DNA from: Geosiphon pyriformis uo1
Taxonomy: Eukaryota > Fungi > Glomeromycota
Length of the DNA: 64,000 bases
Reading direction: 5' to 3'
Assembly (NCBI GenBank): GCA_016748015.1
Contig: JAAOMT010000591.1
Span: forward strand, 323,532-387,531
Shown: positions 9,056 to 64,000 of the stretch, in pieces
How the letters are laid out: every line of letters begins with the position of its first letter
How positions within the stretch are numbered: the stretch's first letter is position 1
Program-made: the position numbers and the translations under genes
The notes under the pieces: generated by a model
Told to the model about the DNA's origin: nothing
Seen by the model: the letters and a program-made list of their open reading frames with translations, nothing else
Database searches by the model: none

Positions 9056-9063
9056 ATTAACCA

Positions 9064-22176: not shown

Positions 22177-22182
22177 TAAAAG

Positions 22183-22201: not shown

Positions 22202-22228
22202 GTCAAAATTCACTTATTCCCTCATTGT

Positions 22229-27839: not shown

Positions 27840-27880
27840 ATAAATGCACCATTCCCAAAACAGAGGTATCTTCAATTGAC

Positions 27881-28496
27881 ATGAACAATTATTTTCTAGA
27901 TCAAAACATTCAAAATGCTTTCTACACTCTCCATGAATACTGGATCAAAAATTATCCAAATGCTACTCTGACCATTGGAAAACAAACCACCATAACTGAT
28001 AACAATGAAACATATACTGTTATTAGACCAAAAAAAACCACTACCAGAAGAGAAAAAATTGGTAGCAAAATAGATAAGTATTTACTAGAAAGCATAACAG
28101 CAGCAATACTTACACCTTCCATGACAATTGGAAAAATGATTAAGGAAATCTTGCCCATAGACAAAACTTGTCATATGGAAGGCAACTAAAACTCTATGGT
28201 TGTCTTGGTAAAATCATAGAAGAAATGAAGCTCATGAAGAAAACAACTTCAGAGATACAAGTGGAAATTTTGGACATTATACGTTTAGATGTCTTAAGAA
28301 TTTTGACCATTGCAAGAAGAGCCAAAACTCTTATACAAAGTTTTGGTCTCTTGAATACAAAGCTTATTTCACCTTAAGTACTATATACTCTATCCACAAA
28401 AGACTTCAACAAACTAGTTAGTTTTGAGTTAGACAAAACCCTTCAATTAGAATACCCTATAAATAGCTTGATTTTGCCAGAGCTCAATCTCTTTGA
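27881..28496 (+). pseudogene. A ORF3, unknown ~200-aa protein
   Basis: ATG 41 nt after the IN stop. ORF pieces 27881-28189 and 28168-28377 continue to the PPT. Confidence 0.65.
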
Positions 28497-28505
28497 AGAG
28501 GATAA

Positions 28506-29159
28506 TGTTATGGTTGAAACCCATAATTTTTATTAGTTATCACATGTATTAGTTACTGATGTCATATAATTAGCCATTTTATTTTTAGATAGTGATTATT
28601 GACCTGATCAATGACCTGACCGTTGACCTGGTTATTGACCACTTTCAATAGCTATATAAGCAATAAGTCTCTTAGCTGTAGAAAATCATCTCTCAGAGAA
28701 GAATTAAATAAATAAAAATAACAACTTTCATCTTAATCACTCTTTTATTGCTAATTTCTCTTTTCCTACCTTCAAATATCCAAACATCTTAGGATAAAAG
28801 ATTACTTGTTGGCCTTTTTCTGTTTGAATAATTGTAGTATTTGAAGATTATTTGAATAAACGTGACTGAAGAGCACAAGTTGATACCTGATATTGAATTC
28901 TAAGAGTGCCAACATGAGGCATAGAATTATACCAGCAGTTATCAATTGTTGACAGTACGGACTATCCCTCTACCTTCAGATTCTCTTGTTACCTTTTGAA
29001 AAGAATAGCAACTGAGATATTTTATGAGACTGATCTCGCACATTGAATCCATACTCATTCAATTTGCTCATTAAAGTTGAATCCTCTTTGATTATTTCCA
29101 TCACCCTACAATCCTGTTTTCCCTTGCTATCCGTTAGCTTATTACTCCAACCCATAACA
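28506..29159 (+). repeat. Element A 3' LTR
   Basis: Preceded by PPT gaagaggataa. Confidence 0.95.
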
Positions 29160-37500: not shown

Positions 37501-38262
37501 CAAAGGAATTGCAGAATTCTAGGAATCCCAGAATTCCTGTTGTGAAGAATTAAGGAATTGAGGAATCTCAATTATGTATATATAGCAGTAGGATTAAAAG
37601 CTAAAAAGACAGACTTCTTAGTTTAGATTTTATCTGAACAACTTTCCAAACCACAAATAAATAACTGTTTGTTATCTCAAACTCACTGTCACTATCAACA
37701 CTTCATGTTGATAGTAATCGATACTTAACTATACTGAAACAATAGCTTTTGATCACGGTTATTGATGGAATACTAACTTGCAAATTGCCTTGGCTTATTT
37801 TTTTTCTTTCTTTATTTTCTTTTCTTTTTTTTATTTTTTGCTTTGATTTTATTGTTGTTTATTAACTCTATTGAGGATTAACATGCAGGGTACTGACGTC
37901 AGGATAAACATGACTGGTAAAAGATCCAGAAATAAGAGTAGAACACTCAATTGAGGATAGCTTACCAGGAGAAATACTGGCCATCAAGCTGAGAAAGAAA
38001 TTGACAAAACTGCAGTTTTAGGAAGCTATGGATAAAACTATTATCATTGAATCTCTGTCTATTATACAAAGAACTCAACCAAACCCTTCAAATACAAATC
38101 TTTCAGACATAAATCTTCAGATCACTATCAACTGCAACTAGATTTAAGCACCAAGTTATGGGTTTGTTATTTAATTCAACACCAGAAATAGTCATCTGTA
38201 ACATTTGGTGCTTTCTGTGAGGTATAATCTTACAGAAAACCAGCACCAACACAAATTTAAAA

Positions 38263-41200: not shown

Positions 41201-44200
41201 CTACCTGAGAAGCCACCATTGATGCTTGGACCGACAACAACCAAAGTGAGATGCCACCAATTCTAGATTGGGAAGAAAAGAGCAAGAAAAAAGGAAAAAA
41301 AAGGAAAAAAAACATACTTAAAGAAACCACCACTGTAGAAGAAATAACTAGTGACTAGGAAAGAGAATACTCACGTGAACTAATAAAAGAGCCACCATAT
41401 ATACCTCTCAAATACAAGGACTGTGAGAAGAAACTGTCCTTAATGAGAGCTTGGGTAGCACCAGATGAAGACTACTGGATGTGAACCCATTACTATTGCA
41501 AGCTCTGCCATAGGGAACAATATGGCTACCCAAAAAAACAAGGCAAGTGGAACAATGAATCATGTCTCACTTGCAGCAAACAATTACTTGATGAAGGAAT
41601 GTGAAACAACATTTTTGGTCGAGGAGGAATGTGTGACACTTCGTGCCAATACACAATCCTCATCAGCGACTGGGTAAATCATGGTACACCCATCACAGCA
41701 GCATGGCACTGAGCTATATTCCACTTAGACGGCTATCCACACGACGAGGACAAGATCTGGTAAATGGCCAATGCTAAAGTAGAAGGCACTTCGCCCAGTA
41801 AAATTTTGGAGATCAAGAATAACCCTCCAGAACCAACAGACATTGTTTTGGTTCTCAACCTGGATGCCTTTATTGACTTAGAAAACAGTCCAGAAGAATT
41901 TTATGAACACTATCAGAATCTAGCACCCATGAGAAAAAAGCAAGAGCAATACTTGGAAGAAATCAACACCTGATTATGTGACCACTGTTTGATTCCATGT
42001 GACTTCCAATTCTGTAATGATTGTGACCTTATCTACAATCCACCACCATGCATGATCTATATAATTCCCGAAGAAGAAGAACCAATCAACAGCTGCACAT
42101 TAGAATTGGAATCAAGTTCCAACCCCAATTCAAACTCTGACAACGACAATAACAAAAATAACAGTTCCAGCTCCATTCAAAATGGCTATAACAATGACAA
42201 TGATTCCAATTCAGATTTAAACTCCAATTCAAACTATGAACAATATATTGCACTCCCTAATCTCACCAAGGAGCAAGAACTGAAATGGTTCAGTGATAAT
42301 AATGAAGGTATCATACCAGAACATGCACATAATACTGATGCAGGATTTGATTTGAGATATCTAGAAAAGAACGCCATCAAATTGGAACTCTATTTGCACA
42401 TTTGCATCGATCTGAAAATAATATTGGAAATTCTAGCAACAACAATGGTTCAATTAGCATCTAGGAGTAGTTTAGTGAAAAAAGGAATAAACATCAGAGG
42501 AGAAATAATTGATGCAGGATATGTAGGAAATATCATTGCTATGCTACAAAATGACTCAGAAAAGGCCTATATTATAGAGCCAAATAAAAGGATAGCACAG
42601 ACAATATTTCTGCCTTTGGTAAAAATAGCTCAGTTAGTTTCAGTAAGAAATAGGAAAGAATTAAAAATAACAGCAAAAGAGATACAGAGATTTGGATCAA
42701 CGGATAGAATAAATGTACCAATCAATATGGTGGAGGTAGAAATTATTGGCCAAGGAGAAATTATCTCAACTGGTTAAACAATTTCCATTCCACCATATAG
42801 CTGATACATGTTAGCAATAAAAAGGAGAGAAAAGGAGCAAGAACAGATTTTTGAAGCAGAAGCAACTCTTTGTGAATCAGAAGAAATTGGACTTATCAAT
42901 CTACACATATCAGCTAAGAGTCATAACCATATCAAAATTTCCATCTACAATAACACCGGAAATATTGTAAAGATACTGGAAGGAACCACTCTCAGATATT
43001 TAACCACAGAAATTGAAGATCAAGCACCAAGCAGCATTTCAGATTTTCCACAGCTTTGTGGATATGTGGATATTACATCACAAATCATCTATAGATGAAA
43101 CAAATGTTATCTGTTACAGCCAGAACAATTGGAACAGATGAACATGGGAAATCTAGACCCACTTCAACAGATGCAACTAAAGATGTTACTTAATAATTTC
43201 AATGACATCTTCGCTAGTGAAAACAAATTTGACAGAACTAATATTATCCAGCATCAAATCAAAACTGGAGATACAATGTCAATCAAACAGTAAGCATATA
43301 GGGTACCACCAGCCAGCCATGAAATCATCTGTCAAGAGATTAACCAAATGCTTGACAATGGGTTAATTCAGCCATCAATGAGCCCATGGTCATCACCAGT
43401 AGTATTCATTCATAAGAAGAATGGAAAAATCCAATTTTGTATAGACTACAAGAAACTCAATGGTGTAACTCATGGAGACAGCTATTCAACTCCATAGATA
43501 CAAGAACTATTCGATGCTTTCAGTGGAAACAAATGGTTTTCAACATTAGACTTGAATAGTGGGTACTGGCAAATAGTCATGGATCTAACTGACAAAAAAA
43601 AAACGGCATTCACCACAAGAGAGAAAAACTTTGAGTTTGAAGTTATGCCATTCGGCTTAACCAATGCTTCAGCTACATTCCAATGGCTAATGAAAATTGT
43701 GTATACTGGCTTATTGTGGAAATTAGTAGTTGTATACTTGGATGGCACCAATGTGTTCTCAAAAACATTTGATAATTATCTACATCATCTTCAACAAGTG
43801 TTCAAAAGACTACAATAAACAGAATTAAAATTGAATACAACAAAGTGTTTTTTTGGCAAAACAGAACTAAAATTCTTGGGACACATAGTTAGCAAAGACG
43901 GCATAAAAACAGATCTGGAGAAAATAGAGATAGTAAAGAACTTTCCAATACCAACCAACATAACCGAGCTGAAATCATTCTTGGGATTGACGAGCTATTA
44001 TAGATGCTTCATAAAAAACTTCAAAAATAGCACAACCATTCAATGATTTTCAAACCAAAAATACAAAGTATGAATGAACTGAAACTCAGCAAAAAGCATT
44101 TGACATCTTAAGAAGAAAGCTTATTTAAGCTCTAGTATTGATCTATCCAGATCATAGTAAACCATTCATTATCACCACTGATACATCAGGTCAAGCATTG

Positions 44201-44536
44201 GGAGCAGTACTATCTTAGAGAGGACCAGATAGAAGAGAACATTCAGTCACATACACCAGCTGAGATTTAACACCAGCTGAAAAGAACTATGAAACACCAG
44301 AATTAGAATATTTAGCAATCTATTAAGCAGTTATAAAATGGAAAGAATACTTGAGCCAAAAGTTTGAGGTGTACACAGATCACAAAGGATTGACATCACT
44401 CCAAAAACAAGAATTTGGAGATGGAAGACAGTCAAGATGGAAAATGGTTCTTTCAACATATACTTATATCATACATTATAAAAAGGAAAAAGACAATGGA
44501 AATACTGACAGTTTGTCGTAAATGAGACAAATCTAA
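38263..44536 (+). pseudogene. B gag-PR-Cys-rich-dUTPase-RT-RNaseH
   Basis: ORFs 38338, 38860, 39337, 39652, 40594, 41764, 41989, 42808, 43552 and 43831 all share one frame. CHNCGKQGHIRANC, LILDSGS, YLDG; ends MRQI* at 44536. Confidence 0.92.
42301..42705 (+). pseudogene. dUTPase domain in B pol
   Basis: Motifs I-V: AGFDL, RSSL, GEIIDAGYVG, RIAQ, RFGST. Confidence 0.92.
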
Positions 44537-44597
44537 GAACATTTCAACCCAAAAATATAACAAAACCAAAACAATACTCATGAAAATATAACAAAAG

Positions 44598-45980
44598 ATA
44601 AACACACAAAAATATCAACAACTTCAACATTATATAGATATTCAACAGTTCAAGAAGAAATTATCTCAACTGGAACAAAAGAGGATCAAACAACAATTCA
44701 AATATTTTATCACTCACCAAAATATACTTTATCAAAAAAATAGAAAAGATTCAGATCAACCAACCAGAGTAATTACAGAACCAGAAAAGAAGACAATACT
44801 GTTCAACATGCATTCAGATTCAACTGCAGGACATTTTCATAAAGAAGCAACCATGAAAAGAACCAGAAAGAGATACTATTGGCCATCAATGTATCCAGAC
44901 ATCATCCAATATGTGCAAAATTGTGATGCTTGTCAAAGAAGAGGAGGAACAAGACCCAGCAAACCATTGAGACCAATCAAAGTGGGACAACCATTTGACT
45001 GTATTGGAATCGATTTAGTCAGACCATTGACAATTACCAGTAGAGACAACAGATATATTGCAGTAGCCATGAACTATCTTACTAAATGGCCAGAAGCCAA
45101 AGCAATTCAAAGAGCGGATGCAGAATCCGTTGCTAAATTCATCCATCAAGATCTGATTTGTCGACATGGATGTCCAAAAGAACTATTATCAGACCAAGGA
45201 ACCCATTTTGTGAATAAAACATTAGCAGAACTAAGCCGAAGATTCAGAATTAAAAGACCACTATCATCACTATACTATTCACAAACCAATGGATTAGTTG
45301 AAAGATTTAATAGAACATTGTGTGAAACAATAGCAAAACTCAGCCAAAAAAACCAGGACGAATGGGATTTGTTCATACTATCAGTATTATTTGCTTATCA
45401 GACAATGAAGCAAGACACCACACAAGCAATACTATTTAAATTGATATATGGTAGAACAGCAATATTACCAGTTAAAATAAAGGTTAACACATATCTAACT
45501 GAACCAATAACAGAAGAGAATTTCCAAGAAACATTGTTAAGAAAAACATATGACTTAATGGAAACATTGGAAAACAAACAAAGAAAAACAGCTAATAATA
45601 TACAAAAATTACAAGAAAAACAGAAAAAAAGACATGATAATCAATTACCAGACAAACCAGTTGAATTCAAGATTGGAGACAAAGTACTCTTACATCATAT
45701 CAAAGCAGAAAAACAATGGAGTGAAAAATTCGATTCCAAATGGAATGGATTATTTTACATAGAAGAAATTCTAGTAAATAGAGCTTACAAATTAAGACTA
45801 GATAACAAAATTTTAACCAAAGCAGCACATGAAGATCAACTAAAACCATATCACAACATCACACCACTATTCACCAGTAATATTTCACAATTAGGAATAC
45901 AGAAGATACTAGTCCAACCAGAGGAGATTCCATGAGATCTGGAACCAATCATCATCATTGAAAACAACACGTTAAATTAA
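44598..45980 (+). pseudogene. B integrase (separate ORF)
   Basis: Decayed start aaagATAaac is in frame with ORF 44808-45935. HHCC, DDE core and GPF-type C-terminus, ending EPIIIIENNTLN*. Confidence 0.9.
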
Positions 45981-46004
45981 TTTATTAAAAGAATATATAA
46001 AGAC

Positions 46005-46664
46005 ATGGTAGATGTGACAAGAAATATCAGAAAAATGGAAATTACAGACAACATCCATTCACTAACACAACAACTCTTTCAATTGATTCAACACCAAGAG
46101 ATGAAAATTACAATTAATCAACAAACTATCTGATATCAAGACACTAAAAAGACATCACCACATAGAACACAGAAGAAAACAGAAAATACCATTGACAAAA
46201 TCATTGTGAAAGTAAAATTAGCAATAAAAGAGTCGACAAAAGAGTCACTATACCAAGAGTTAACTAAAGAAACTTGAAATTGGTGAATACAACAATTTTC
46301 AAGAAACTATTGTTATTTGTATTTGGAACAACACATGAATATCCAGAATCTATATACAGATAAAACAAAGCAATTATTTAACACAAGAATACTACAACAA
46401 TTAGAACATTTTTTGGGAAAGAACAACTTATCCACACAGGCCTGAGCCATATACTGAATATACACAGCATTTCAGGATTGACCAGAAATTTTACTCAACA
46501 AAACAATGGATACAGTTACCAGTAATCAATTAAGAAAGATCACTAACACTCAATTTGAAGAATTACAGACTCAAATAACACAAGTAATTCTCGAAAATGA
46601 AATTCAGGAAATACTTTAAGAAAAGGAATTAACAGAGTTAGATTTCAACAGAGCTCAATATTAA
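46005..46664 (+). pseudogene. B ORF3, unknown 219-aa protein
   Basis: Single frame from ATG 46005 to TAA 46664, with several internal stops of transition type. Ends DFNRAQY* at the PPT. Hydrophilic and predicted helical by eye. Confidence 0.75.
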
Positions 46665-49600
46665 AAGGAGGAAATAATGTTACTCATAGAACTATAGGGA
46701 ATATATTGGCATAGTTATTAACCAATCAGAAGTAGATATAGTAAAATGTAGAATTCCAAGATTCCTCTCAGGAATTACAGGATTCCAGGAATTACAAGAT
46801 TCTCACAAGGAATCACAGGATTCCAGAATTCTAGGATTCCTCTCAAAGAAATTGCAGGATTCCAGGAATCCCAGAATTCCTGTTGTAAAGAATTGAGGAA
46901 TTGAGGAATCTCAATTATATATATATAGCAGTAGGATTAGAAGCTAAAAAGACAGACCTCTTAGTTTAGATTTCATCTGGACAACTTTCCAAACCACAAA
47001 TAAATAACTGTTTGTTATCTCAAATCTGCTACCACTATCAACACTTTATGTTGATAGTAATTGATACTTAACCACACTGAAACAATAGCTCTTGATCATG
47101 GCTATTGATGGAATACTAACTTGCAAATTGTCTTGGCTTATTTTTTTTTTTCTTTATTTTATTTTATTTTCTTTATTTCTTGCTTTGATTTTATTGTTGT
47201 TTACTAACTCTATTGAGGATTAACACACAGGGTACTAACATCAGAATAAACATGACTGGTAAAAAACCCAGAAATAAGAGTAGAACACTCGATTGAGGAT
47301 AGCTTACCAGGAGAAATACCAGCCATTAAGTTAAGAAAGAAATTGACAAAACTGCAGTTTTGGGAAGCTATGAATAAAACTATTATCATTGAATCTCTGT
47401 TCATTATACAAATAACTCAATCAAACTCTTCAGATACAAATCTTTCAGACACAAACCTTCAGATTACTATCAACTGCAACTAGATTTGAACACTAAGTTA
47501 TGGGTTTGTTATTTAATCCAACACCAGAAATAATCACCTGTAACATTGTCATGTAAGTAGCCATCCAAGCAAAAGATTGCTTGGTGCCAGGCAGCAGTAA
47601 CAGATGTTTTATGACTTACCCAGTCACTGATGAGAATCATATACTGGCATAAAATGTCACATGTTTTTCCTCGACCAGGAATGTTATTTCACATTTCTTC
47701 ATCGAGTAACCATTTGCTGCAAGTGAGATATGACTCATTGTCTTACTTTCCTTGTTTCTTTGAGTAGCCATAGCATTTTCTATAGTATGGCTTACAGTAG
47801 TAGTGGGTTCTTGTCCAATAGTCTTTGTCAGATGTGATCTAAGCTCCCATGGAGGAAAGTTTCTTTCTACAGTCCTTGCATTTGAGAGGTATATATGGCG
47901 GCTCTTTTATTAGTTCCTGTGAGTATTCTCTTTTCCAGCCACTAGTTATTTTTTCTGTGGTGGTAGTTTTTTTAGGTAGATCTTCTTTTTTTCTTTTTTC
48001 TTTCCCTTTGTTGGTTTCTTCCTATTCCCAGGTTGGCAATTTGTCTGAGCCATTGTTAGTTTCTCAGATTTAGTCTGTATTTCAGGTAAGTTTTTTTTTT
48101 GGTTTCCTTTTCTATTGTCATTCCAAAAGAGTATTGGTGGTAGTTTGTTGTGGTCTTCATCAGTTCATGACACTTGATAGGTTTTTCAGGTAGGTTTCTT
48201 TTTCTCTTCCTTGAAATTGATAAGTAGCCACATTGCAGTGCTGGGTTTGAAATGGCCACACGTTGCTGGTACTCGTATGTGTTGGCTGTTTTGACTGATT
48301 TACAACTCTTGTGTTGTCTAGTCAAGTATTGCATTTGTTTTGGACAGCCAGTCATTATCAACAAGGGCTTAGTACTGAATGGCTTCTATGACCAGAACTT
48401 TGGTTGGTACTGTGATGCTATTGATTTCAATAGAGAAGTCATCAATTTCATTAATCAGAGTTTTGGTCACTCCATCAGCAGTGATAATTCATGTGCTGGC
48501 AGCACAATCAACTCAGTGACCTAATTGATTCATGAGTTGTCATGTGATAATGCTGCTTGCTGATCCACTATCAAGAATAAGCTTGATAAAGTGTCTATTA
48601 AATTTGGCATCAGTGTACATAGTGGTGATTGGTTTTTCTTCAAGTGTGGCTTTCCTAAACAAGAGCATAGATGTCAGTTCTTCAAGTTCAAACAGGAAGA
48701 TAGCTGCAAGTAACTTGTTGTTAGTAACAGCGGCTAGAGGTATGTTGCTAATGAGTGTTTGTTTGTGGTTAGATTCCGTTTTGTTGGATGTGGTGTTTTC
48801 TGAAGTTACCAGGAGACTTAAATAATTCTAGGAATTCGGGTTTTGGGTATACTCGGTTTCTAAACTCTGCTGGCGTAATCTTGATGGCTGGTTTGAGGAG
48901 CTAAAAATCAGTTGGTGAACAACCATCACTGATCTCCAGTTTTGAGTGACTCTAAATTTGGGATTTCCTGATGTCACCTGAGTGGAATTTGGAGTTGAGA
49001 TCACTGGTGTCTGATAGATTACTTGTGGCTGCAGTGGTTAATAGATTATGAGTGTTGCTGGTTGATAAATTGATGCTGAAGTCTGATATACTGAAGATAA
49101 ATATAATTGCTATGTCATTAGGATTTGATAAATTGGCTGTGTTACTGAGGAGTAATGTAATTGAGATTGGTATTGTTCTGGTGATTGATTACTGATGTAG
49201 TTCTGAGTTTGTAGTTGGCAATTGGAGTTTTGATACTGATTAGTTGATCTCTGGTTACTTATTTTTTTTCAACATTCAAATTGCAAATGTTCTTGTTTAC
49301 TACAATAGTGGCATGTATGCGTTTTCTACTGCTATTGTTGATTAGTCGAGGATAATGCTGGATGTGACTGATTTTGAGAGTGACTTCTGTTTTCCTGATT
49401 GTTGCATCATTGTGGAGGTTGATAAATGGCTTGATTGGTATTAGCTAAGTATTCCTCTAATTTTTGATTGATTAATTTACTGAATTGCTTTAATTTGAAA
49501 TTCAATTTAGATGGTCTGTTCATTACTAAATTTATGGCTTGAATGTGATTTGTCTCAAGTTCAGCTGCTTCAAAATCTCTGACATTTGTAACTGCAGCTT

Positions 49601-52600
49601 AAAGATCTGCTGGATGCATTGGACATATGTATTGGAGGATACTACTGTGCAGTCCTCTAATAAATTGATTCAAAATTTGTGGCACTGTGAAATAATTAGC
49701 CTGTATGGCCTGAATTTGGTGCAGATTTTTATAAAAGTGTCCTAAGTAAGTAGTAACTGCTTCATTTTCTCCTTGCTTGATGGTGGTGAAAGTGTTTGCC
49801 AATCAGTTAATACTATTATTATTACTGAAATATTGTAGAAATGCAAGCTTGAATGCATTGAAATCTTGGGGTTTGTTAACCAAGCTTTGATATCATGAAT
49901 TGGCAGTATTTTGGAGAAAATAAGGGATGACTTGTATGGCTCTGACATCATTTCATTTATTGGCCGCAATGGCTTTTTTCACATTGTTCAGCCATACTTG
50001 GGTGTTGTCCTCTTCACCAATAAACTTTTCGAGTTTTGCTATTGGAACATAGACTATTAGATTCAAGTTTAGTTGTTGTGGTCATTGAAGTAGTAATTGA
50101 ATTTAAAATTGTGGTAGTTGCTGTTGTTGTGGAGTAACTGGTGGTGAATTGATAATGATTACCAGAGATAAGTGTTGTTGATTATTAATGTTGGGGTTTG
50201 GATTATTCTGATTTTTCTGGGTTTAAAAATTTGAAGTTTCAATTTCTGAATTTTCTAAATTTGGATCTTGCTAAGTCTGAAAGTTTGGGGTTTCAATGTC
50301 CAAGATTTCTGGAATTAGGTTCTGATAAGTAAATTTTTGATCTTTGGCTTTTTTTTCTTCCTCTTCTTCTGATTCTGTTATCTCCCAGGAACTTGCATTT
50401 CTGAAATTTGGTTGAGGTAATGGTGATTGAAATTCTAATGAGGTAGTTGATTGCTATTTAAATTCTTCAAAATAATTGCTATAAGTCTCTAATAACTCTG
50501 TTTTCTTTTATTTACTTTGAAATAGGAGTTGTCCAAATGTTGATGTCATATTTGATGTGGATGTGTCTATTGATAAAATGTTAATGGCGCTTCTAGGTAT
50601 ATAGTGATATGATAAGTTTGTTGGTAATTCAACTCTAATTTTCTTCCAAGTAGGTGGTTGGATTCCTTTTGGTATCACTGTTGGGGTTTGTAGTCTTTCT
50701 TTTCCTTTGTCTGCATAAATAATTGGGAATTGTTGTTGTGGGTATCTTTCAATGGTTTTATTAATTTTCTTAATAATTGGTATGAAACTGTGATTTCTTG
50801 GTAAGCTGGTGTGTTGAAATAATTCTGTATAGAAGTTTTCTCTTGCTGATTCGATGTTAACTGTTCCTTCTAGACAGTCTGTAATCTTTTCATTAACATA
50901 AAAATTGAAAGTGAATTCTGCTGGATAATGGTTGTTGGTTAAGCTCAATTGTTGGCTGTACTGTTGAAATAAGAATTTGGCAAATCCTAAATGGTTTGTT
51001 CCTATGATTTCTAATTCTGCCACTTTTAGATAGTTGTTGTTGGTGCTGGTTCTCTGTAGAATTATACCTCACAGAAAGCACCAAATGTTACAGATGATTA
51101 TTTGGGATCTCAAATCAAATAACAAACCCATAACTTGGTGCTCAATTGATAATGTGATTGGTAATTTCTGAAGGTGTTGTTATGGTTTAAGAATTTAGCA
51201 AAAAGAATCATAAAAATAATACAAACTATTTAATCATAATATAGTGCAGTAATAATCTTAGAAAGGTAATGATTAACATAGTAGCAAACACCATTTCGTG
51301 ATAGTGACAAGCACCAGTTCACAATAGCAGCCAATACCAACTGGTAATAGCAGCAAACACCAGGTTGAAATATCAAAAAGAAAGTATTATAATGTGTTTT
51401 CTTGTAGAACTACAAACATGTATATATACAGTAGTTTTAATATTAGGAAAAGAAATCAAGTAATAAAAATCATAACTTATCAAGCAATAGATCCCATTTT
51501 ATCCAACAAACTCCACTTTAAATCATACTTTCAAATTAAATATCCCAAGAAATCTTTAAATCAAAAAGAAATGAAAAGAATATTTAAAACTGAATTATCA
51601 CAACCCAAAGTATTAAGAAACTTACTTGTATTATTTATTGAATGAAACTATCATTCATCAACTGAATCTCTTGGAAGAATAATCCTTGATCAAGATTATT
51701 TACGTTGTTACTAATTGATAAAAGCTTTATTGTAAGAATTAGAAAAAGCGCTAAAAACCATTAACATTCTGTGTTTTTAGATTAGAGAAACACATCAGAC
51801 AATTGCAAGGATAGCCTCAGAGAAGACCCCAGATAGTGGGTAGATTTCAGTTCAGCCTCTGAAAAGGAGTACATAAACACACACAACAATCAGGAATTGA
51901 AGAATAACTTACATTGCAACATTAAAAAGAAAGCCTTCAGTATAACAGTGACATTATCACACAAATAGAATTGAGGAACTCACGAAAGACTGATTGCAAT
52001 TAAAACAAGATATCAGCAATTAAATATAACAAAAAAACTATTCCATAACATTTGGTGAATCCTACAAGAAAAGAAAATCAAAAAGGAAATAATAATTAGC
52101 AATAATTTATTGCTAAAAAGGAAGAGACAAAAGTGGCGACAAAAACCCCTAATCTTACTGTTCTTGAATTCTGCCATGCTATTTACACACAAAATCAAAG
52201 TGATCTTGGATTACCAGAAGAGTGTTGTCCAGCAGAATCTGCTCTCACTTATTATATCAATGCCAGAATAAATTATCATATAGGAAAAGAAAAAGAACCA
52301 CATGACACAAAACTTGGATTATATAGAGAATTATCACAATACACTACAAAAGAAGTAGCAGTAATAGCCGCAACTATTGTCAAAATCCATTGAGAAATTG
52401 AGCAATATGCCAACAAAAATTTTCCAATATCCACAGGAAACATTAGGGAATGCACCAACAAAACCAAAGAAAATTTAGAAACTAATCAAGAAAGTAACCA
52501 GCAAAAACTAAGAACACTAGCTCAAACACCAAAGAAAACTGTTACTCAATCAATAAAGAAACAACGTATTTATTCACCAGAAGATAAATCATACCATTTT

Positions 52601-55561
52601 TCACCAGAAAATAAGATACAAATTCCATTAGGAGCTGCATCATCATCAACATCAACTCCACAAACGCCAAGAACTTCTAGTTATACTGATAAAATTAAAC
52701 AACGTAACTGGAGAGACATACCAATTACAGGAGGATATTCATCACTATTCCAAAACCCTCTTTTTCAGCCAAAATTTAGAACGGGGTTTGAAAACCGTGA
52801 AGAGGAGTCTGAATCGGAATCCAAAAAAGAGACCAGTGAAAAAACAATCACAAGACCAGTCACTGGAACAAGCAGCCAGTCCAGAAACCAAGAAACTCAT
52901 GATCAAGAGGAAGAACTGGATATAAGGGAAGCTACCTTTAGGAATGTTCAAGGAAATATCATCCCACTTTCTCTTAGACCAATAAGCCCACCAGTAGAAA
53001 ATGGCAACAAAATGACCACACCATACATTGTAAGACTAACAGATTTCTCAGGAGAGGAAGAAGAAATGGACGTGCACACATGGCTTAGAGAAGCACAAAA
53101 AGCCATCCAGGCAAATAACTGAAATGACCAAAGAGCAATTCAAACATTACCTTTTTTCCTGAAAAGCACAGCCGACTCGTGGTATCAAAGCCTGGAAACA
53201 AAACCCACGAGCTTCGCTGAATTTAAAAATGCACTTCTGGAGTATTTTAGCAACCCAAACACCGTAATCCAACTACAGAACGAATTCAATACTATCAAGC
53301 AAAATACTGGTGAAACTGTCACCCAATACCTTGCTCGATTCAATCGAATTTACCGTCAGATTGAAGCGATTAAACAAAGATACTACACTGATCCTCAGGT
53401 TTTAAATCAGTTTATTAGAAGATTAAAAAGCAGCATTTTAGGAAGAATATGCTCTGCCCACCCTAATTCCTTACCAGAAGCCATTATGCTCACCAGAGCC
53501 CTTGAATCAGTTGAAAAAAAAGCTAACCATAGTCAAATAGTTAACATAGTAATAAAAGAAAATAAGACAGAAACATTAGAGAAAAGAGTAATACAATTAG
53601 GGAAGAAACTCTCTAAGAAAATAGAAAGTTGCCTCATCCCAGATCCAAGAAAAAATACATACCAACCACCCCAAAGATGCAGCCAGGAAGTCAGTGACAG
53701 TCGAAATAATTGCTCATCGTACCAGGAATTCAGAACAGAAACGCGTGCCTGCCATTTTTGCAAATGCGTAGGACATTTGATTAGTCAATGTCGAATGCGA
53801 ATGATGCAGGAAGCACGCGAAAATAATTACTACACGCCACCCCAAATGCCCAGAAACCAGTATACACCAATACCATGCCAATATCCCACCACGTATCAAA
53901 ATCAAGGAGCTTACCAGCAACAGCCCATGATAGCCAACCCAAATTGATGTCCTAAGGCCCGAAATCAGCCCATGTGGAACCAGAACACATTGGTCCAGAG
54001 AAATCCAAACCACGCCAAAACCAATCAGCAAACCAATCTAAACTACCAAAATTATCAACAAACTTACTTTAATATACCAGAAAAACTGATCATCGGAAAT
54101 AATGACAGTAGAAACATAAACAGAACCAAGAATTCCTCCAACAAATTGAGCCAGACAATACTACCAGCAGTTGCCACTAAAGATAGCAGCCTCGCAGCTA
54201 TTTTTCCTTTTGAATTAGAGGAAAACAAGGCTATATTCAGTGGAGCAGCATTGGACAAAAAATGCCCAATCACTGCTATGTATACGGAAGTCACTGTAAA
54301 CAATACCCCAATCAAACTTATCTTAGACAGTGGATCCACTGGAAGCATCATAACGCTTCAACTAGTAAACCAACTGGGTTTCAAAGTTGATCATGCTGTG
54401 ACGTCCCAAATCATAACAGCCGATGGAAGTACAAAGCTGCCTCATGGCGAAATCGACTCATTCTCTTTCGAAATTAATGGCATAGTAATACCTACAAAAG
54501 TATTAGTAATGGACACTACATAATATCAAGCATTAGTAAGGAATGACTGGCTAACAAAAGCCAATGCCACTCTAGACTGGACCACCCAAGAGCTTCTGAT
54601 CAATTATAATGGCCACCAGGCCAAAATTCCAGCTACCTATGGCCACTTCCAAAAACCCAGTGCCAACCAAAGACCTATCTTCGAATTTGAGGAAAATCCA
54701 GTACTACCAGCCGTACCAATGTGGACCAGTGAAAAAAGATCTGAATGGAACCAGGTAAGTTCACAAAGAAACTACCAGTGACGCAAACCAAAGCTAGAAT
54801 GCTCGGTTTGCAAGAAAAAACTCTTGTCTATGACTGCGTACAGCACACTGGACAAAGACCCAAGAAACCTCACCCACTACTATTGTAACCGTTGTAACAA
54901 AGAAAAATACAGTTATCCAGAAAGACATGGAAAATGGGACGAGGAACTATGTCTCACTTGTGAAGAACCGTTATCAAGAGGATGCGACTGGAACGACATA
55001 TCAGGCAGAAGAGGAACGTGTGACGCAACTTGCCAATACACAATCCTCATCTGTAACTGGGTAAGAGGAGGAATGCCATTCGAAGCAGCATTCAACAGAG
55101 TGTTAAAAAGACTACAGCACTACTCACACGACAAGAACGAGTTGTACAACACCACACAAGCCAAAGTAAGAGGAGGAACTGCCGAAGAAATACGACATTG
55201 GAAAGAGTCAGCCGAAGTAGCTAATGAAGTCACCAGCTACAACATGTTTGACCCAGTGGACGAATTCCAGGACTACTACCAACAACTATGCCCCACTCGA
55301 CAAAAGCAAGAACAATATCTCACCCAAATCAACACTTACCTCTGTAAAAACTGTCTCATTCCATGCCAAAATCAGTGCTGTGAAGAGTGTCAAGATGAAA
55401 GGGACTTAGAAAAAAAAATGGAAATTGAGAATCAGCAGTCTCAAAATCAATCAATAAATCAACAAGACTCACCTGACAGTTCCAAGTCAGAAAAATTTGT
55501 AGCCTATACCAACCTAGAACAGGTGACTGACATCCAATACTTTGACAATGGGCACTTAGGA

Positions 55562-55957
55562 ATAATACCTGAAAGAGCCCATCTAACTGATGCCAGATTT
55601 GATCTACGTTATCCGGAAGACCAATCCACAATGTTACCACTTAGGAGCATCACCAAAATTGACCTAAAAATAGCGGTTAAAATTCTGCCAGGAATAATGG
55701 TTCAAATAGCATCACAATTAAGCCTCGTGAAAAAAGGAATAAGCGTTCAAGGAGGAATAATTGACTCCAGATACACTGGAAATTTGATGGTTTTGCTACA
55801 GAACAATTCAGAAAAGCCTTATACCATTGAATCTAAGGAAAAGATTGCACAAGCAATTTTTCTACCATTGGTAAAAATTGGGAAATTTGTGCCAGTGGAA
55901 AATTGTGAGGAATTGTCACAAACAATAAGAAGAACTTTTGGTTTCGGATTAACAGGA
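55562..55957 (+). pseudogene. dUTPase domain in E pol
   Basis: IIPERAH.TDARFDL, GGIIDSRYTG, KIAQAIF, R.TFGFGLTG. Confidence 0.92.
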
Positions 55958-57208
55958 AAAGGAATTGAAGTGAATTTTGCTGAAACAATAGAGGAAAAAA
56001 GCAAAGTAATTAAAAATGAGCAGTTCATCACACTCCTACCATATGGAAAATCAGAAATAAGAATAAAAAGGACAATTAAAGAAAAAGACCTAATATTTGA
56101 GCCCTACCCAGAAACTTGCCAACAGTTTCTTATAGGACTTACTAACCTTTTTATTCCAGCTGATAAAGCTCAATGGATAAAAATTCCTATCGCAAACACC
56201 ACAGAAGAACCCATCTACATTCCGGAAGATACCATCATTGGATACCTCGGAACAGAGCTAGAAAACGCGTCAACACCACAAGAAATTCTAAATTTCCCAG
56301 AAATTGCCCTCTACTGTGAACTCACTTCAATAAATTGCCAACAACTGTTAGAATGTTATCAATTTACACCAAAAGAATTGGCCAAATTAAACATTGGAAC
56401 AATGAATTCTGACTAACAGCGACAATTAAAAGCATTAATTTTAAAATACTCTGATATATTTTCACGAAATAGCGAATTTGGAAGAACCAACTTGGTTCAA
56501 CACCAAATCCCCACTGGAGACGCCAGACCTGAAAAACAATGTGCTTACCATGTCTCACCAATGGAGCATAATTTTATCAGAGAAGAAGTCCAAAGCATGT
56601 TGGAAAAAGGAATAATACAACCATTAATGAGCCCATGGTCCTCACCAGTTGTTTTAGTAAAGAAAAAGAATGGAAAAATTAGAATTTGTGTCAACTATTG
56701 CAAACTAAACAGCAAAACAACTAAAGACTCATACCCAATACCATTAATTGACGAAATCTTTGACGTTTTTGGAGGAGCAAAATGGTTTTCTACATTGGAC
56801 TTGACCAGTGGGTACTGGCAAGTGGAAATGGACCCAAAGGACAGACATAAAACAGCATTCACAACACAAAATGGCAATTATGAATTCAATATAATGCCAT
56901 TTGGATTAACAAACGCTCCTGCGACATTTCAAAGACTAATGGACATAATTTACTCCAGAATCCTGTGGCAATCCGTTGTTGTCTACTTGGATGATACAAA
57001 TGTTTTCTTGTCAAAATTCACAGATCATCTCCAACATTTACAACAAGTTTTTGAGAGATTGAGACACGCTGGACTTAAACTAAATCTAAAAAAATGTTTC
57101 TTTGAGAAAAATGAGCTAGCATTTTTAGAACACGTAGTTGAAAAAGATGGAATAAAACCAGATCCATCAAAAATAGACAAAGTGAAAAATTTTCCAGTAC
57201 CTCGAAAC

Positions 57209-57283
57209 NNNNNNNNNNNNNNNNNNNNNNNNNNNNNNNNNNNNNNNNNNNNNNNNNNNNNNNNNNNNNNNNNNNNNNNNNNN
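57209..57283. other. Assembly gap (N run); real gap is probably longer
   Basis: The RT thumb and RNase H N-terminus present in B and C are missing across the gap. Confidence 0.95.
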
Positions 57284-57613
57284 ACGTGTAATCACTTATG
57301 CCAGCAGAAGTCTCAGTATGGCAGAACAAAACTACGCAGCACATGAACTTGAATGCTTAGCAGTAGTCTGGAGTTGTGTTCACTTTGACACATATTTACG
57401 GTACCAACCCTTTGAGATTACAACAGATCATAGAAGTCTGGTCTGGTTAAATAACAAGAAAGTGCTAAAAGGAAAATACGCCAGATGGTTACAAACATTA
57501 GCACCATACAATTATATTATCAAATACAAAGAAGGTACCAAAAATACTTATGCTGACTGTTTGTCAAGAATGAGACACACATAAAAATCACCAACCCACC
57601 TGCCACAACAACA

Positions 57614-58993
57614 ATGAACAACCATCTTTACAAAAACCTCAGCCAATACTTGGAAACACTACAAATAGACGAAGAAATGCCAGTAAAAGAGCTAATTAAG
57701 CTCCAAAAATTAGCAAAACACTATTTCATCCAAAATCACATACTTTATTACCAGAATCGACAAAATCCAGATAATCTATTAAGAATTATAACCATGGATG
57801 AAAAAGAAACTATCTTATTTAACATGCACTCAGATATTCATTCAAGCCACTTTGGAAAAACAGCAACCATCCAATGTGCAACTAGCCGTTACTATTGGCC
57901 AAAAATAAGTTCAGACATAATCCAATACATAAAAAATTGTGACTCATGCCAACAAAGAGGAGGAGCAAAAACAACAGAATTATTAAGACCAATAAAAGTT
58001 GGACAGCCATTTGACAGAATTGGAATTGATTTAGTTGGACCCTTACCAATAACAACAAGAAACAACTATTATATTGCAGTAGCCATAGACTATCTCACCA
58101 AATGGCCAGAAGCTAGAGCTATTAAAACAGCTGATGCTATTTCAGTAGCTCAATTCGTACATGAAAACTTAATTTGCCAACATGGATGTCCACAAGAATT
58201 GCTATCAGATCAAAGCACACACTTCATAAACAGCACCTTAAAAGAACTTAGCCAAAAATTTGGAATTAAGCGACCACTGTCATCACCATACCACCCTCAA
58301 ACAAATGGATTAGTTGAAAGATTTAATCGCACATTATGCAAATCACTGGCAAAAATTAGTAATGAACATGAAAAAGAATGGGATTTGTTCATACCAGCAG
58401 TACTACTAGCATATAGAACAGTAAAACAAGATACTACACAATTTACACCATTTGAACTAGTTTATGAAAGAAAAGCCACATTACCAGTTGAACTTACTAT
58501 CCCAACTTATCCAAGTGACACTATCATGGAAGCAACATTCCAGAAAACATTACTTAGAAAAACATACGAATTAATAAGAACTTTAGAAAACAAAAGAAGA
58601 AAAGCAGCACAAAATATTGAACAATTACAAGAACAACAAAAAGTGAGACATGATAACCAGTTACCAGATAATATAATTAGCTACAAAATTGGAGATAAAG
58701 TATTGTTGCATCATACAAAAATGGAAAAACAGTGGAGTGGAAAATTTGATCACAAGTGGGATGAACCATTTTATATTCATGAAATACTTGGAAATGGAGC
58801 ATACAAGCTAAGACTAGATGATAAAATATTAGGAAAAGCAGCACATGGTAACTGGCTGAAATTCTATTACAGTAAACCAGTAATAACAACAAAAACACCC
58901 AGAATTGAAACACAATTACCTTTAATTCTACCAGAACAAATTCCACGAGATTTAGAACCAATAGTTTTAATTGAACATTATTCAAAAAGATAA
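57614..58993 (+). CDS. E integrase, stand-alone uninterrupted 459-aa ORF
   Basis: acaacaATGaac 29 nt after the RNase H stop. HSDIHSSHFG..CDSCQ, IGIDLVGP, LSDQ, PYHPQTNGLVERFNRTL. Confidence 0.9.
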   Translation: MNNHLYKNLSQYLETLQIDEEMPVKELIKLQKLAKHYFIQNHILYYQNRQNPDNLLRIITMDEKETILFNMHSDIHSSHFGKTATIQCATSRYYWPKISSDIIQYIKNCDSCQQRGGAKTTELLRPIKVGQPFDRIGIDLVGPLPITTRNNYYIAVAIDYLTKWPEARAIKTADAISVAQFVHENLICQHGCPQELLSDQSTHFINSTLKELSQKFGIKRPLSSPYHPQTNGLVERFNRTLCKSLAKISNEHEKEWDLFIPAVLLAYRTVKQDTTQFTPFELVYERKATLPVELTIPTYPSDTIMEATFQKTLLRKTYELIRTLENKRRKAAQNIEQLQEQQKVRHDNQLPDNIISYKIGDKVLLHHTKMEKQWSGKFDHKWDEPFYIHEILGNGAYKLRLDDKILGKAAHGNWLKFYYSKPVITTKTPRIETQLPLILPEQIPRDLEPIVLIEHYSKR

Positions 58994-59077
58994 TTAATCT
59001 TAGATCACGACAAAAATGATTTAACAACCATAAAAACACATGCAAAAGATTCCAAAATAGCAGTCAAAATTAAAACA

Positions 59078-59341
59078 ATGATACTTATTCTAGAAAACAT
59101 CAACAATATAACTCAACAATTAGTTGAAAGCTTACAACAATTAAAATCTGATCTGGAAATCACAGTTAATAGCTCCAAGATAACATACATAAAAAGAACN
59201 NNNNNNNNNNNNNNNNNNNGACTTACCAATTCGCAATTTCAAGAATTACAACAACAAATTAATAACACAGTATTGAACCATTATAGTAACTTAGAATTTA
59301 ATGAAAAAATTAACTTCAATTTCGATGGAGCTCAATTTTAA
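59078..59341 (+). pseudogene. E ORF3 (middle lost in N gap 59200-59219)
   Basis: Both ends resemble B ORF3 (ENINNITQQL...LEITVN; LTNSQFQELQQQI...FDGAQF*). Confidence 0.7.
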
Positions 59342-61426
59342 AAGAAGGGAATAATGTTACGATTTAAGAATTTAGCAAAAAGAATCATAAAAATAATACA
59401 AACTATTCAATCATAATATAGTGCAGTAATAATCTTAGAAAGGTAATGATTAACATAGTAGCAAACACCATCTTGTGATAGTGACAAGCACCAGTTCACA
59501 ATAGCAGCCAACACCAACTGGTGATAGCAGCAAACACCAGGTTGAAATATCAAAAAGAAAGTATTATAATGTGTTTTCTCATAGAACTACAAACATGTAT
59601 ATATATAGTAGTTTTAATATTAGGAAAAGAAATCAAGTAATAAAAATCATAACTTATCAAGCAATAGATCCCATTTTATTCAACAAACTCCACTTTAAAT
59701 CATACTTTCAAATTAAATATCCCAAGAAATCTTTAAATCAAAAAGAAATGAAAAAGAATATTTAAAACTGAATTATCACAACCCAAAGTATTAAGAAACT
59801 TACTTGTATTATTTATTGAATGAAACTATCATTCATTAACTGAATCTCTTGAAAGAATAATTCTTGATCAAGATTATTCACGTTGTTACTAATTGATAAA
59901 AGCTTTATTGTAAGAATTAGAAAAAGTGTTAAAAACCATTAACATTCTGTGTTTTTAGATTAGAGAAACACATCAGACAATTGCAAGGATAGCCTCAGAG
60001 AAGACCCCAAACAGTGGGTAGATTTCAGTTCAGCCTCTGAGAAGGAGTACATAAACACACACAACAATCAGGAATTGAAGAATAACTTACATTGCAACAT
60101 TAAAAAAAAAGCCTTCAGTATAACAGTAACATTATCACACAAATAGAATTGAGGAACTCACAAAAGACTGATTACAATTAAAACAGAATATTAGCAATTA
60201 AATATAACAAGAAAACCATCCCGTAACAGTGTGTTTATCTAAAGGTTTTGTTGTGGAGTTCTTTGTATAATAGACAGAAATTTAATTGTTATCTTCTCAG
60301 TAGCCTTTTGGAATCACAATTCTGTCGAATTTCTTTCTCAACATGGTGGCCAGTAATCTGGCAGAGATGCCCTTCTGGTAAGCTATTCTTAAATTCTCAA
60401 TTTCTATACTTTTCTTTTGGGGTCTTTTACCAGGCTATTTTTGATGTCAATAACTCAGCACTTAATCTTCAATTAATTAGTACAATAATATAATAACAAA
60501 ACTAAAAGAAATAAAAGAAAATAAGCCAAGACAATGAATTTTAGTATTCTGTCAATAGCCATAATCAAGAGCTATTGTTCCAGTGTGGTTTAAGTATCAA
60601 TTGTTATCAACATAAAATGTTGATAGTAAAGAGTGTATTTGAGATATTGATATTTGTGATGTGAAAGGTTGCTTTAGATTAAATCTAAACTTGAGAAGTC
60701 TGTAACTAAAAGGTTCTGTCTCTTTCTGTTTTTAACACTACTGCTATATATACATAATTAAGATTCCTCAATTCCTTAATTCTTCACACCAGGAATCCTG
60801 GAATTCCTGGAATCTTGCAATTTTTTTTGAAAGAAATTCTGGAATTCTAAAATCTTGCAATTCCTTGTATGAGAATTCTGAAATTTCTGGAATCTTGCAA
60901 TTCTTTTTAAGAGGAATTTTGGATTTCCATATTTACTACAGCTACTTCTAATTGGCTATTTATATGCTAATATACTTCTTATATTTTATAAGTAATAATG
61001 GCTATTAATGAGATACTAACATTTATTGTCTTGGCTTATTTCTTTATTTTCTTTTATTTTCTTTTATTATTATTTTTTGTTTTACTAATTGGTTAAGAAT
61101 TAAAAAATGCTAAGTTACAAATGTCATAGGGACTAATAAAAGACCCATGAAACAAGGGTAGAAAACTCATAGATTTGAGGATAGCTTACCAGAAAGATTA
61201 CTGGCCATCATGCTGAGAAAAAAATTTGATAGAATTGTGATTCTGAGAGGTGACTGAAAAACAACTATTGAATCTCTGTTCATTATACAAAGGGCTCAAC
61301 CAAAACCTTCAGATTATAAAAATCTTCAAATACAGTTAATCTTTAGAAACCAACATCATTATATCAATTAAGCACCAAGTTATGGGTTTGTTATTTGCTT
61401 TGAGACTCAAATAATCATCTATAACA

Positions 61427-63751
61427 GCAGTACAAAATTAGAGACACTATTTTCACCAACTATTTAATCTATACACTAATTATAAAGGACTTATTTAATT
61501 ACTTAATAATCCACAACTAAAAAAAAATATGCACAATAAAATACTTATCTGTAACAATTCTCATAAAAAATTCATTATAAGGAAAAATCTAAGAACACCA
61601 ATATTAACAATTTGTTAAAAATAATACAAATCTAATCTCTAAACCATAAACACAACTATCTATCAGCAATTACACCAGTATTTATCAACTTTTTAGTTCA
61701 AAGAGCTATTATTTTAATAACAACAAAGTAGTATACAGAAACAAGCTCATAATTACTTTATTCAAAACAACCAACTAAACTATTAAAAATGTCAAAACCA
61801 CATTATCTTATAACAAGTTATAAAAAACAATGAAAAAGAAACTGTTTTGCACAGTATGCACTTTGATCTAATTGCAAAACACTTTAACAAAAACACTACT
61901 TTAAAAAGAACTACAAATCTATACTATTGGCCAATAATATATAAGAACATCTTTGAATATGTCCTCAACTGTAACTTATGTCAATGAAAAGAAAAAGCCA
62001 GAAAAATAGAACCACTTTGACTCATCTCAGTTTGAAATTTATTTAATAAAATAAGAATTGATTTGGTTAATTCTTTTCCAATTACATCTAAAAAAATTAT
62101 TATATTGCTATAGTTGTAAACTACCTTACTAAGTGGCCAGAAGCCAGAGTAATCTAAGTAGCTAATGCTAAAACAGTAGCCAAGTTTGTACACCAAGATC
62201 TAATTTGCCATTATAGATGTCCAAAAAAATTGTTATCCAATCAAAGAACACATTTTGTCAATAGTATACTAACCAAACTAAGCCAATAGTTTGGAATAAA
62301 ACAACTTTTATTATTATTCTATTACCCACAAACAAATAGACTGGTAAAATAATTTAACCTAATACTGTATAAAACATTAGCAAAAATAAGTTACAAAAAT
62401 GCACAAAAATAAAACTTATTTATATTTTCTGTATTATTTGCATACTAAACATTAAAGCAAAATACTACTCAGTTTACACCATTTGAACTAGTCTATAAAA
62501 GAAAAACTATCTTATCTATTGAACAAGAAATACTTTTTTTTCCAACAAAAAAAATCACTAAAGAAAATTTTGAAACTACCTTATATCAAAGAACATACCA
62601 ACTTATGAAAACATTAGAAAACAATTGTGGAACAGCAGCTAACAATATTAGTAAAGCTTAAAAACAACAAAAAAAAAGATATGATAATTGTCTATTTGAC
62701 CAACCAATCAAATTCAAGATTGAAAACCAAGTACTATTACATTATATAAAGGCTAAAAAACAGTAAAATAAAAAGTTTGATCTGAAGTGAAATAGTTTAT
62801 TTCATATACACAAAGTTTTAGACAATAGAGCTTACAAATTAAGATTGAAAAACAAAATTTTAAAGAAAGTAGTACATAAAAATCAGTTGAAAATTTATTA
62901 TACAAACCAAGAAACATTGTTATCTGTACTGTAACTAGAAATACAGATTTCATTAATCAAACCAAAAAATATATCATAAGATTTGAAACCAATTATTGTT
63001 ATCAAAACATAATCAACATACAACTATTTAATTAAAAAATTTAAGTATATATAATAGCCAAAACAGCAAAAAAAATGGTAGAACTCTCAACATAAACCTC
63101 TTAAATAAAATTTTAAAACTCTTAAAACAACTATTTGAGATAATTCAACAATTTACAATTCAAATAAAAATCACAATTAATAGAAAAGATATATAATACA
63201 AAGACAGAAGCAAAAAAAAATGAGTAAAAGTTTAACTAAAACTGAATATTCTTACAATTAAAAAAAAAAGATATGTTGAACCAAACTTGAAAAAATAAAA
63301 AAAGCTTTGAACAGTCTAGTATTAGAATCAGTAATAAGAGAATAGACACTTAAAAACTCCAGAATATGGAAAAAAAAACTTTTATTAGTCTACTGGTTCT
63401 ATAAAATTGGTAAACAAATAGGATTAAGAACACTATATAAAGATCTTAATTGACAAACATTCAACAAAAAAGCTCTTAAATAAGTAGAAGTATTTATAAG
63501 AAAAAACAACTTAATACTATACTATAAAGCAACATACTAATTATATGTGATATTCAAATACTGTTTAGCTATACTACTAAACAGCTCTCTAGAAACTATT
63601 ACAATCAACAACATAAGACAAATAATGAATAAACAGTTTAAAGACTTACAAAAAACAATATTTAACACAACAATCAAATACTACACAAAAAATACAAATA
63701 TTACAGATACATATAATTTTACAAAAACTTAATTCTAAAATAGAGAGATAA
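61427..63751 (+). pseudogene. Decayed RNaseH C-terminus - integrase - ORF3 block (Z) fused directly to LTR D
   Basis: Starts AVQN-RHYF..YT-YKGL. RNase H stop 61633-61635; IN remnants YYWP, YLTKWPEA, YYPQTN; PPT ~63738-63751. Confidence 0.8.
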
Positions 63752-64000
63752 TATTACTTAAGTAGAAAAACCAATTCAAGTTATGAAAAAACATAATCAA
63801 AATATAATAACATAAAATAATATAAAATAATATGAAAGAACACAAAATAACATGTAATAACTTAAGATAACACAATATAAAATGCAAAAATACAATATAG
63901 CACAAAAAAACTAATTAAACTTAAGATAACTAATAATAATATAAAAAAATAAAGCAATAACAGAAATAGTAAATAATAATTAGCAATAATAAAATAATTA
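63752..64000 (+). repeat. Start of a decayed 3' LTR (G-type U3), runs off the window
   Basis: Follows the PPT; tattacttaagtagaaaaacc resembles tgttattcaagtaaaaaaact at 19174. Confidence 0.6.

Follow-up and report, generated by a model that had tools for sequence, protein, structure and literature searches.

Ty3/Gypsy LTR retrotransposons are described as carrying either one Gag-Pol open reading frame (ORF) or separate gag and pol ORFs, with integrase as the last domain of pol (PMC2864245, PMC3248453, PMC7175516). Integrase is treated in these accounts as a cleavage product of Gag-Pol, and its making and its packaging are both explained in this way. Separately made enzymes are described elsewhere. 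DIRS-1 has a separate recombinase ORF, but this encodes a tyrosine recombinase (PMC5006619). Foamy virus Pol is made apart from Gag and is packaged through RNA and Gag contacts, by the account in PMC3196705. Translation that restarts behind a long ORF is documented in victoriviruses, hypoviruses, caliciviruses, SART1, and LINE-1, and gaps of 29 and 63 nt still permit it (PMC5972666). No LTR element whose RNase H and integrase are separated by a stop codon, nor any earlier account of such a layout for the clade studied here, is described in the full-text literature covered, which includes PMC12440569, PMC6839031, PMC2864245, PMC13465315, PMC3248453, 10.1101/2021.03.30.436303, PMC2836005, PMC5006619, PMC5009743, PMC7175516, and PMC5580714; Repbase, which lies outside that literature, GyDB, subscription journals, and the element tables of PMC2864245 and PMC3248453 could hold one.

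The window analysed here is a stretch of 64,000 nucleotides from Geosiphon pyriformis contig JAAOMT010000591.1. It contains the end of a host gene and a nest of LTR elements (Table 1). The elements show the TG...CA LTRs, the short target duplication, and the Gag-protease-RT-RNase H-integrase order of Ty3/Gypsy. Pfam assigns Ty3_capsid, RT_RNaseH, and Integrase_H2C2, and the nearest named full-length matches are Gypsy-type polyproteins. A chromodomain, the criterion for chromoviruses, was found neither in E, A, and B by Pfam nor in the best 120 near-length matches. In A, B, C, and E a tract starting TGGTG, a candidate tRNA primer-binding site, lies behind the 5′ LTR, and a purine tract, the candidate polypurine tract, lies ahead of the 3′ LTR. 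Element E is inserted in the 5′ LTR of C, and its own LTRs (51178-52050 and 59355-60228, 874 bp) are 96% identical. All 31 substitutions between them are C/T or A/G, and CpG stands at 0.42 of expectation; decay in the window proceeds through transitions. In Y and Z, LTR-derived sequence joins the RNase H end, integrase, and ORF3 directly, and the two may form a non-autonomous family retaining integrase and ORF3 only. E, B, and C also hold a long Cys-rich, acidic stretch between protease and dUTPase (54782-55560; 41974-42400). Elsewhere, a 2.3-kb decayed repeat with an open-frame remnant is present in three copies that are 72-75% identical, two of them in tandem (6762-11354, plus strand; 15760-18023, minus strand).

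Table 1. Positions of features in the window (plain coordinates) and in related loci (coordinates prefixed with the locus)
Feature	Position	Strand	Description
THO2-like host gene end	814-3123		Pfam Tho2, E=5e-93; more coding sequence at 313-783
Element A	21519-29159		LTRs 93% identical; target duplication ATAT
A integrase	26526-27779	+	Starts at ATA 26526, +1 to the RNase H frame, whose TAA is 26567-26569
Element Y	30133-20103	minus	Z-like, internally deleted, interrupted by A
Y junction	29474-29459	minus	TGA 29474-29472, 10 nt, ATA 29461-29459
Element C	31599-60995	minus	Broken up by B and E insertions
C junction	34553-34517	minus	TAA 34553-34551, 31-nt spacer, ATG 34519-34517
Element B	37336-47547		LTRs 92% identical
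B junction and integrase	44534-45935	+	TAA 44534-44536, 61-nt spacer, ATA 44598
Element E	51178-60228	+	Full-length Ty3/Gypsy LTR retrotransposon; TG...CA ends; 4-bp duplication GTGT
E Gag-protease-dUTPase-RT-RNase H region	52106-57584	+	Pfam; ends at TAA 57582-57584, four codons past AD.LSR
E spacer	57585-57613	+	29 nt; 26/29 A or C, one G, no AG, no ATG
E integrase ORF	57614-58993	+	459 aa from own ATG; H2C2 zinc finger, rve core, weak Tf2-like SH3 match
E ORF3 remnant and purine-rich tract	58994-59354	+	Ahead of the 3′ LTR; N gap 59200-59219
Element Z	60995-64000	+	Heavily decayed, internally deleted copy
Z junction	61633-61648	+	TAA 61633-61635, 10 nt, ATA 61646
RNA motif	L008:4461-4503, L013:5190-5232, L014:3295-3338, L032:1320-1362		And 14 further loci
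Pol extension past RNase H	L008:3494-4438, L013:4345-5163, L014:2417-3271, L032:584-1291		236-315 aa
Small basic relay ORFs	L028:602-736, L043:903-1399, L011:2490-2862, L044:2416-2574		Between Pol and integrase
ORF3	L003:2287-2712 and homologues; window 58994-59330, 46004-46640		

Element E is the clean case among these elements. Its region upstream of integrase is in one frame, with six nonsense stops from decay and no frameshift in 1,701 codons, up to an N gap at 57209-57283 across which frame continuity is unreadable. The integrase ORF, which lies in a different frame, has no breaks in 459 codons. The junction has no unusual predicted fold (z=-0.04), and the spacer is left unpaired in the prediction. 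The ORF3 remnant that follows resembles, by eye, those of B, C, and Z.

The sequence-only reading had held that integrase is separate from the RNase H frame in every readable Gypsy element here. Its five junction coordinates are all exact on re-check, and Y, which it had not included, adds a sixth. The integrase of A does lie in a different frame from RNase H, as had been stated. There is no stop ahead of its start, however, so that A is ambiguous alone, but its closest relative, L030, is split. ATG is present at only two of the six window starts and ATA at the other four, which fits transition-only decay since the substitutions between the E LTRs are all transitions. The phase of the junction is +1 in five of the six and −1 in E only. 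The B spacer equals that of C plus about 30 nt, in equal phase, so these two do not count as separate cases, and neither do Y and Z. The window alone makes a weaker case for the split than the sequence-only reading implied.

The split could be attributed to random mutations in dead copies or to an assembly artefact. Every copy in the window is damaged, ATA stands at most of the starts, and A, taken singly, might be a fused element that has suffered a single indel. The family of E bears on this reading. Contigs of run X1, 326 of which align to 57500-57700, represent copies of that family; X1 is possibly the window's own sample and so not independent of it, yet it holds many other copies. Runs X2, with 11 contigs, and X3, with none, do not enter the count. 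The TAA has no variant at 1% or more among these contigs, no indel at 1% or more occurs across 57500-57700, and the integrase ATG carries G>A in 4%, where variants near contig ends can be missed and one listed contig has two gap letters. The control is an in-frame TGA of E at 52391, where 66,241 of the 76,902 units of depth (86%) show C, giving a sense codon, with depth not being copy number. Unlike this decay stop, the junction stop and its phase are fixed in E's family, and the fixation of stop and ATG proposed as a check on the split is borne out among these contigs.

Relatives of E mostly have the same layout. The best 120 near-length matches to the integrase are integrase-only proteins of 390-453 aa, 119 starting with M and 108 with M-D/E/N, in a search restricted to integrase-sized proteins, to which fusions are invisible. 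Among longer proteins, 6 of the 120 matches listed reach at least 40% identity. These are three gene models (P0121, P0126, and P0130), the patchy P0131, a true fusion (P0124), and one animal gene model at 40%. The three gene models were rejected as fused relatives: the last part of RNase H and the beginning of integrase are missing from them, and we therefore read them as intron artefacts. Among 80 metagenome loci, the RNase H end and integrase are both visible in 38, of which 34 have the split layout; the other 4, including a broken one, belong to the fused type. Every one of the 30 loci with at least 39% integrase identity is split. L066 was rejected as a split locus, being a fused element broken within integrase.

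In seven split loci the ORF upstream of integrase is unbroken, at 1,026-1,621 aa, and the longest of these, in L013, spans capsid to RNase H. The reverse test started from long RT-RNase H (Gag-Pol) matches. Integrase was found in none of 44 metagenome-called matches out of the 120 listed, two of which (P0465 and P0467) are not clade members; the rest of the top listing is swamped by multi-copy gene models. An RT-RNase H profile search, likewise dominated by multi-copy gene models, gave 15 single-stretch matches among the 150 listed, with integrase in 5 and absent from 10, counted irrespective of clade membership. The continuous RNase H-integrase frame that might have turned up in intact relatives was not found; those relatives are split. 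The fixed stop and phase, the unbroken upstream ORFs, and the reverse test refute decay or artefact, to which we assign next to no probability. The split is inherited, as the sequence-only reading argued.

The split is also widespread in a fungal Gypsy lineage. In an RT tree, 24 split sequences and the fused P0124 group at an SH-aLRT of 96, with E and A inside and L062 and L067 outside. In an integrase tree, a core of 23 split sequences groups at 89, with L048, L064, L062, and L067 outside; four of its sequences labelled as fused (P0145, P0159, P0122, and P0139) are long proteins without RT. Both trees are quick ones, leaving out two near-copies and having no Copia or BEL outgroup. Because some split elements fall outside both groups, the split need not have a single origin. 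Among named integrases, the nearest relatives come from Rhizophagus irregularis, which encodes stand-alone integrases of this clade, and from Cetraspora. One Atlas cluster among the integrase matches is mostly Mucoromycota, and GIN1-named clusters are among the nearest Atlas matches. This large group of elements probably belongs to soil and mycorrhizal fungi. Viral contigs gave three weak, unrelated integrase matches only. Among genome contigs under prokaryotic MAG titles, L084 is the one member of the clade, the others being distant fused elements; L084-L092 are eukaryotic Gypsy elements that likely contaminate those bins.

We examined the start of integrase in stop-to-stop translations. ATG lies at the first position of the profile in 49 of 55 loci and 6-20 positions inside it in the other 6; three more loci have no readable ATG. 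A purine is found at −3 in 46 of the 55 starts, compared with 184 of 305 internal Met codons (p=0.0007), and an A at +5 in all 55, compared with 164 of 305. In all 55, the Met is followed by D, E, or N. The sequence-only reading had described a conserved M-N start; the conserved start stands, while the second residue is not N alone. M-D/E/N N-termini are substrates for NatB acetylation. Judged from its sequence, the integrase ATG is a conserved start with an initiation-like context.

The distance from Pol stop to integrase start varies widely, as does its phase, in agreement with what had been seen in the window. Across 34 junctions it ranges from −14 to +943 nt, and the three phases are represented 13, 12, and 9 times. 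The stop and start overlap in nine: once at −1 (TAATG), and twice each at −4 (ATGA), −8, −11, and −14. Four others are at 24-39 nt, ten at 62-97 nt, and eleven are longer. Two of the eleven have premature stops in the Pol tail, with a true spacer near 62 nt. In two more, an intact small ORF terminates on the integrase ATG (L028 at −4 and L043 at −8); a relay ORF starts about 30 nt past the Pol stop in both, and in L043 it is a second, chained one that reaches the ATG. Another two have decayed small ORFs ending at −8 (L011 and L044). Taken together, 13 of the 34 lie within −14 to +39 nt, 4 more come close to a stop through relay ORFs, 12 lie at about 61-97 nt, and 5 are unexplained. These five spacers lack a relay ORF (L033, 163 nt; L034, 162 nt; L067, 278 nt; L062, 371 nt; L041, 727 nt), and the last three hold 3-12 ATGs. 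The 14 spacers of 20-100 nt hold 4 ATGs where 12.6 are expected (P=0.002, with relatives not independent). In L062 (3859-4230) and L067 (1078-1356), the long spacer of a divergent split subfamily contains a conserved stretch of 60-70 nt twice, which may be a second structured RNA.

Recoding by frameshift, readthrough, or hop would produce a Pol-integrase fusion in which the AUG is incidental. Such a fusion would solve packaging, 9 of the 34 junctions are in phase, and the fused P0124 sits within the RT clade. The span of distances and the use of all three phases nevertheless exclude readthrough or one fixed frameshift, and the earlier argument against both is upheld. The Met is conserved with a start-like context, the spacers hold further stops, and Pol tails of 200-400 aa terminate at stop codons of their own. 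We regard recoding as very improbable.

Stop-and-restart translation on the genomic RNA is the reading we favour, at somewhat better than an even chance. Ribosomes would translate the Gag-protease-(dUTPase)-RT-RNase H frame of the full-length RNA, stop before integrase, and restart at the AUG of integrase in its separate frame. In some subfamilies restart would proceed through overlapping stop and start codons. In E, C, and L001 they would hop or scan a short way across the unstructured A/C spacer, and in one subclade a small RNA structure may help. The expression routes of the subfamilies may thus differ. Restart is favoured because stops, those of relay ORFs included, keep landing on or near the AUG, and because the E spacer has no splice acceptor. 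The overlaps, the short AUG-poor spacers, and the relay ORFs ending on the integrase AUG all fit restart. On the other side, the overlaps could be compaction, the fold of the E junction is unremarkable, and the five long spacers without a relay ORF are not accounted for.

Integrase could instead be made from its own subgenomic mRNA, either transcribed from a promoter inside RT/RNase H or spliced to the 5′ leader. The start context and the avoidance of AUG fit a capped subgenomic RNA as well as they fit restart. The five long spacers fit it too, and the distance from the integrase stop to ORF3, which reaches about 1.2 kb in L022 and L032, hints at subgenomic RNAs. A splice acceptor in the E spacer is ruled out by the absence of AG, and the 30 nt upstream are likewise free of AG at 12 of 53 starts. 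A separate mRNA also gives no reason for stops, including those of the relay ORFs, to sit on the start. We consider this route a serious but unlikely competitor of restart.

An RNA motif of about 40 nt lies directly before the integrase ATG in 18 loci of one subclade. It has two stems, an outer one and an inner one that carries a CANNGYGA loop, and a conserved bulge rich in purines. The motif occurs once per locus, with the loop 17-54 nt ahead of the ATG in all 16 loci that have a readable ATG. Of 12 named pairs, nine show changes on both sides; 95% of cells are paired, and none of 500 shuffles matches this; slid controls are 30-52% paired, kinship of the loci being uncorrected. A bulge-loop contact of 2 bp is possible but has no supporting double changes. 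The motif has no match in Rfam or in viral contigs. CAG or TAG is present in 14 of 16 copies, as a splice site for a subgenomic mRNA would have it, but L015 shows CGG there, matched by a compensating change, and this speaks for base pairing rather than for a splice signal.

The covarying structure and its placement before the ATG also count in favour of termination-independent internal ribosome entry on the genomic RNA, whether through this structure or through an unstructured A/C leader such as the G/U-poor, unpaired E spacer. The motif, however, is found in 18 of 90 sources and is missing from the window, which counts against both internal entry and structure-assisted restart there. It could instead be a protein-binding or packaging site, for example for the loading of integrase, and internal entry leaves the overlaps unexplained. 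We hold internal entry to be improbable, though less so than recoding.

Motif-bearing elements in which Pol is visible have an extra Pol tail, of 273-315 aa in L008, L013, and L014. This extension is acidic and then Cys/His-rich (C-D-x-x-C-D-x-x-N-H/Y-H-x-H-T-x-C-x-x-C-like), occupies the usual place of integrase, and has no Pfam match. After integrase, an ORF3 of 140-240 aa is found in ten loci, aligning weakly with a mean column identity of 21%. It is modelled with confidence (pLDDT 94) as an all-helical domain, for which there is no match in Pfam or, by Foldseek, in PDB or BFVD; Atlas matches are weak and unnamed. Its position relative to integrase starts from overlap and extends to the distances given above. 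The tricistronic order proposed earlier (gag-pol without integrase, integrase, ORF3) stands as a layout with a conserved ORF3, with the amendments that some relatives have extra small ORFs and that a layout is not a transcript.

A separately made integrase would need its own way to the DNA of the element. We infer that binding to RNA or proteins of the element, and not membership of a polyprotein, would bring it to the cDNA; of all the steps in the restart scheme, this loading has the least support. That a successful, high-copy lineage departs from the polyprotein route indicates that integrase can be supplied separately. The fungal junctions, from −14 to about +100 nt with relay ORFs and one structured RNA, provide a natural series for the study of eukaryotic restart after a very long ORF. 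There are also consequences for annotation. Mycorrhizal gene models bridge the junction by introns that delete conserved residues (P0121, P0126, and P0130), other gene models name the integrase an independent transposase, and intact split copies are at risk of being scored as broken.

In termination-reinitiation systems a downstream AUG overlaps or adjoins the stop of a long ORF, and some junctions of the relatives, with TAATG and ATGA overlaps, resemble them. The present candidate case differs in being an LTR retrotransposon, at the RNase H/integrase boundary, with wider distances. As to an upstream cis element of the TURBS or pseudoknot kind, the E junction has no unusual fold, and the covarying motif of one subclade lies within the spacer. 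In foamy viruses the whole of Pol is separate, whereas here it is integrase alone, with RT still fused to Gag.

Ginger1 and the Gypsy integrases with a YPYY motif, as described in PMC2836005, offer a stand-alone Gypsy-like integrase of about 400 aa, 4-bp duplications, and TGT ends. Split-clade integrases have, by eye, a Y/F-P pair before the zinc finger, comparable to the YPYY motif. Unlike Ginger1, the split elements have LTRs, Gag, and RT-RNase H, and have neither terminal inverted repeats nor an OTU/Ulp1 domain; the integrase-plus-Ulp1 proteins P0145 and P0159 do not group with the split clade in the integrase tree. We offer one broader idea tentatively, as doubtful. In an old fungal Gypsy lineage, integrase may have become a free-standing transposase with its own translation switch, made up of stop-restart junctions, relay mini-ORFs, and, in one branch, a 40-nt RNA device recruiting ribosomes or integrase. 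It would be loaded by RNA binding or meet the cDNA outside the particle, and the lineage would today stand midway between LTR retrotransposons and DNA transposons of the Ginger type.

Troyka, by the description in PMC12440569, has a 3-bp duplication and CG...CG ends, compared with 4 bp and TG...CA here. Canonical Ty3/Gypsy elements, including the fungal, dUTPase-bearing PosPlaTy3-5 described in PMC2864245, share the LTR ends and the order of capsid, protease, RT, RNase H, and integrase. E, L062, and L064 also have a dUTPase between protease and RT, like these fungal elements. Here, in contrast, a helical ORF3 without a Pfam or fold match is present and integrase lies outside the Pol ORF. Split-integrase elements are therefore a new variant lineage of Ty3/Gypsy rather than typical members.
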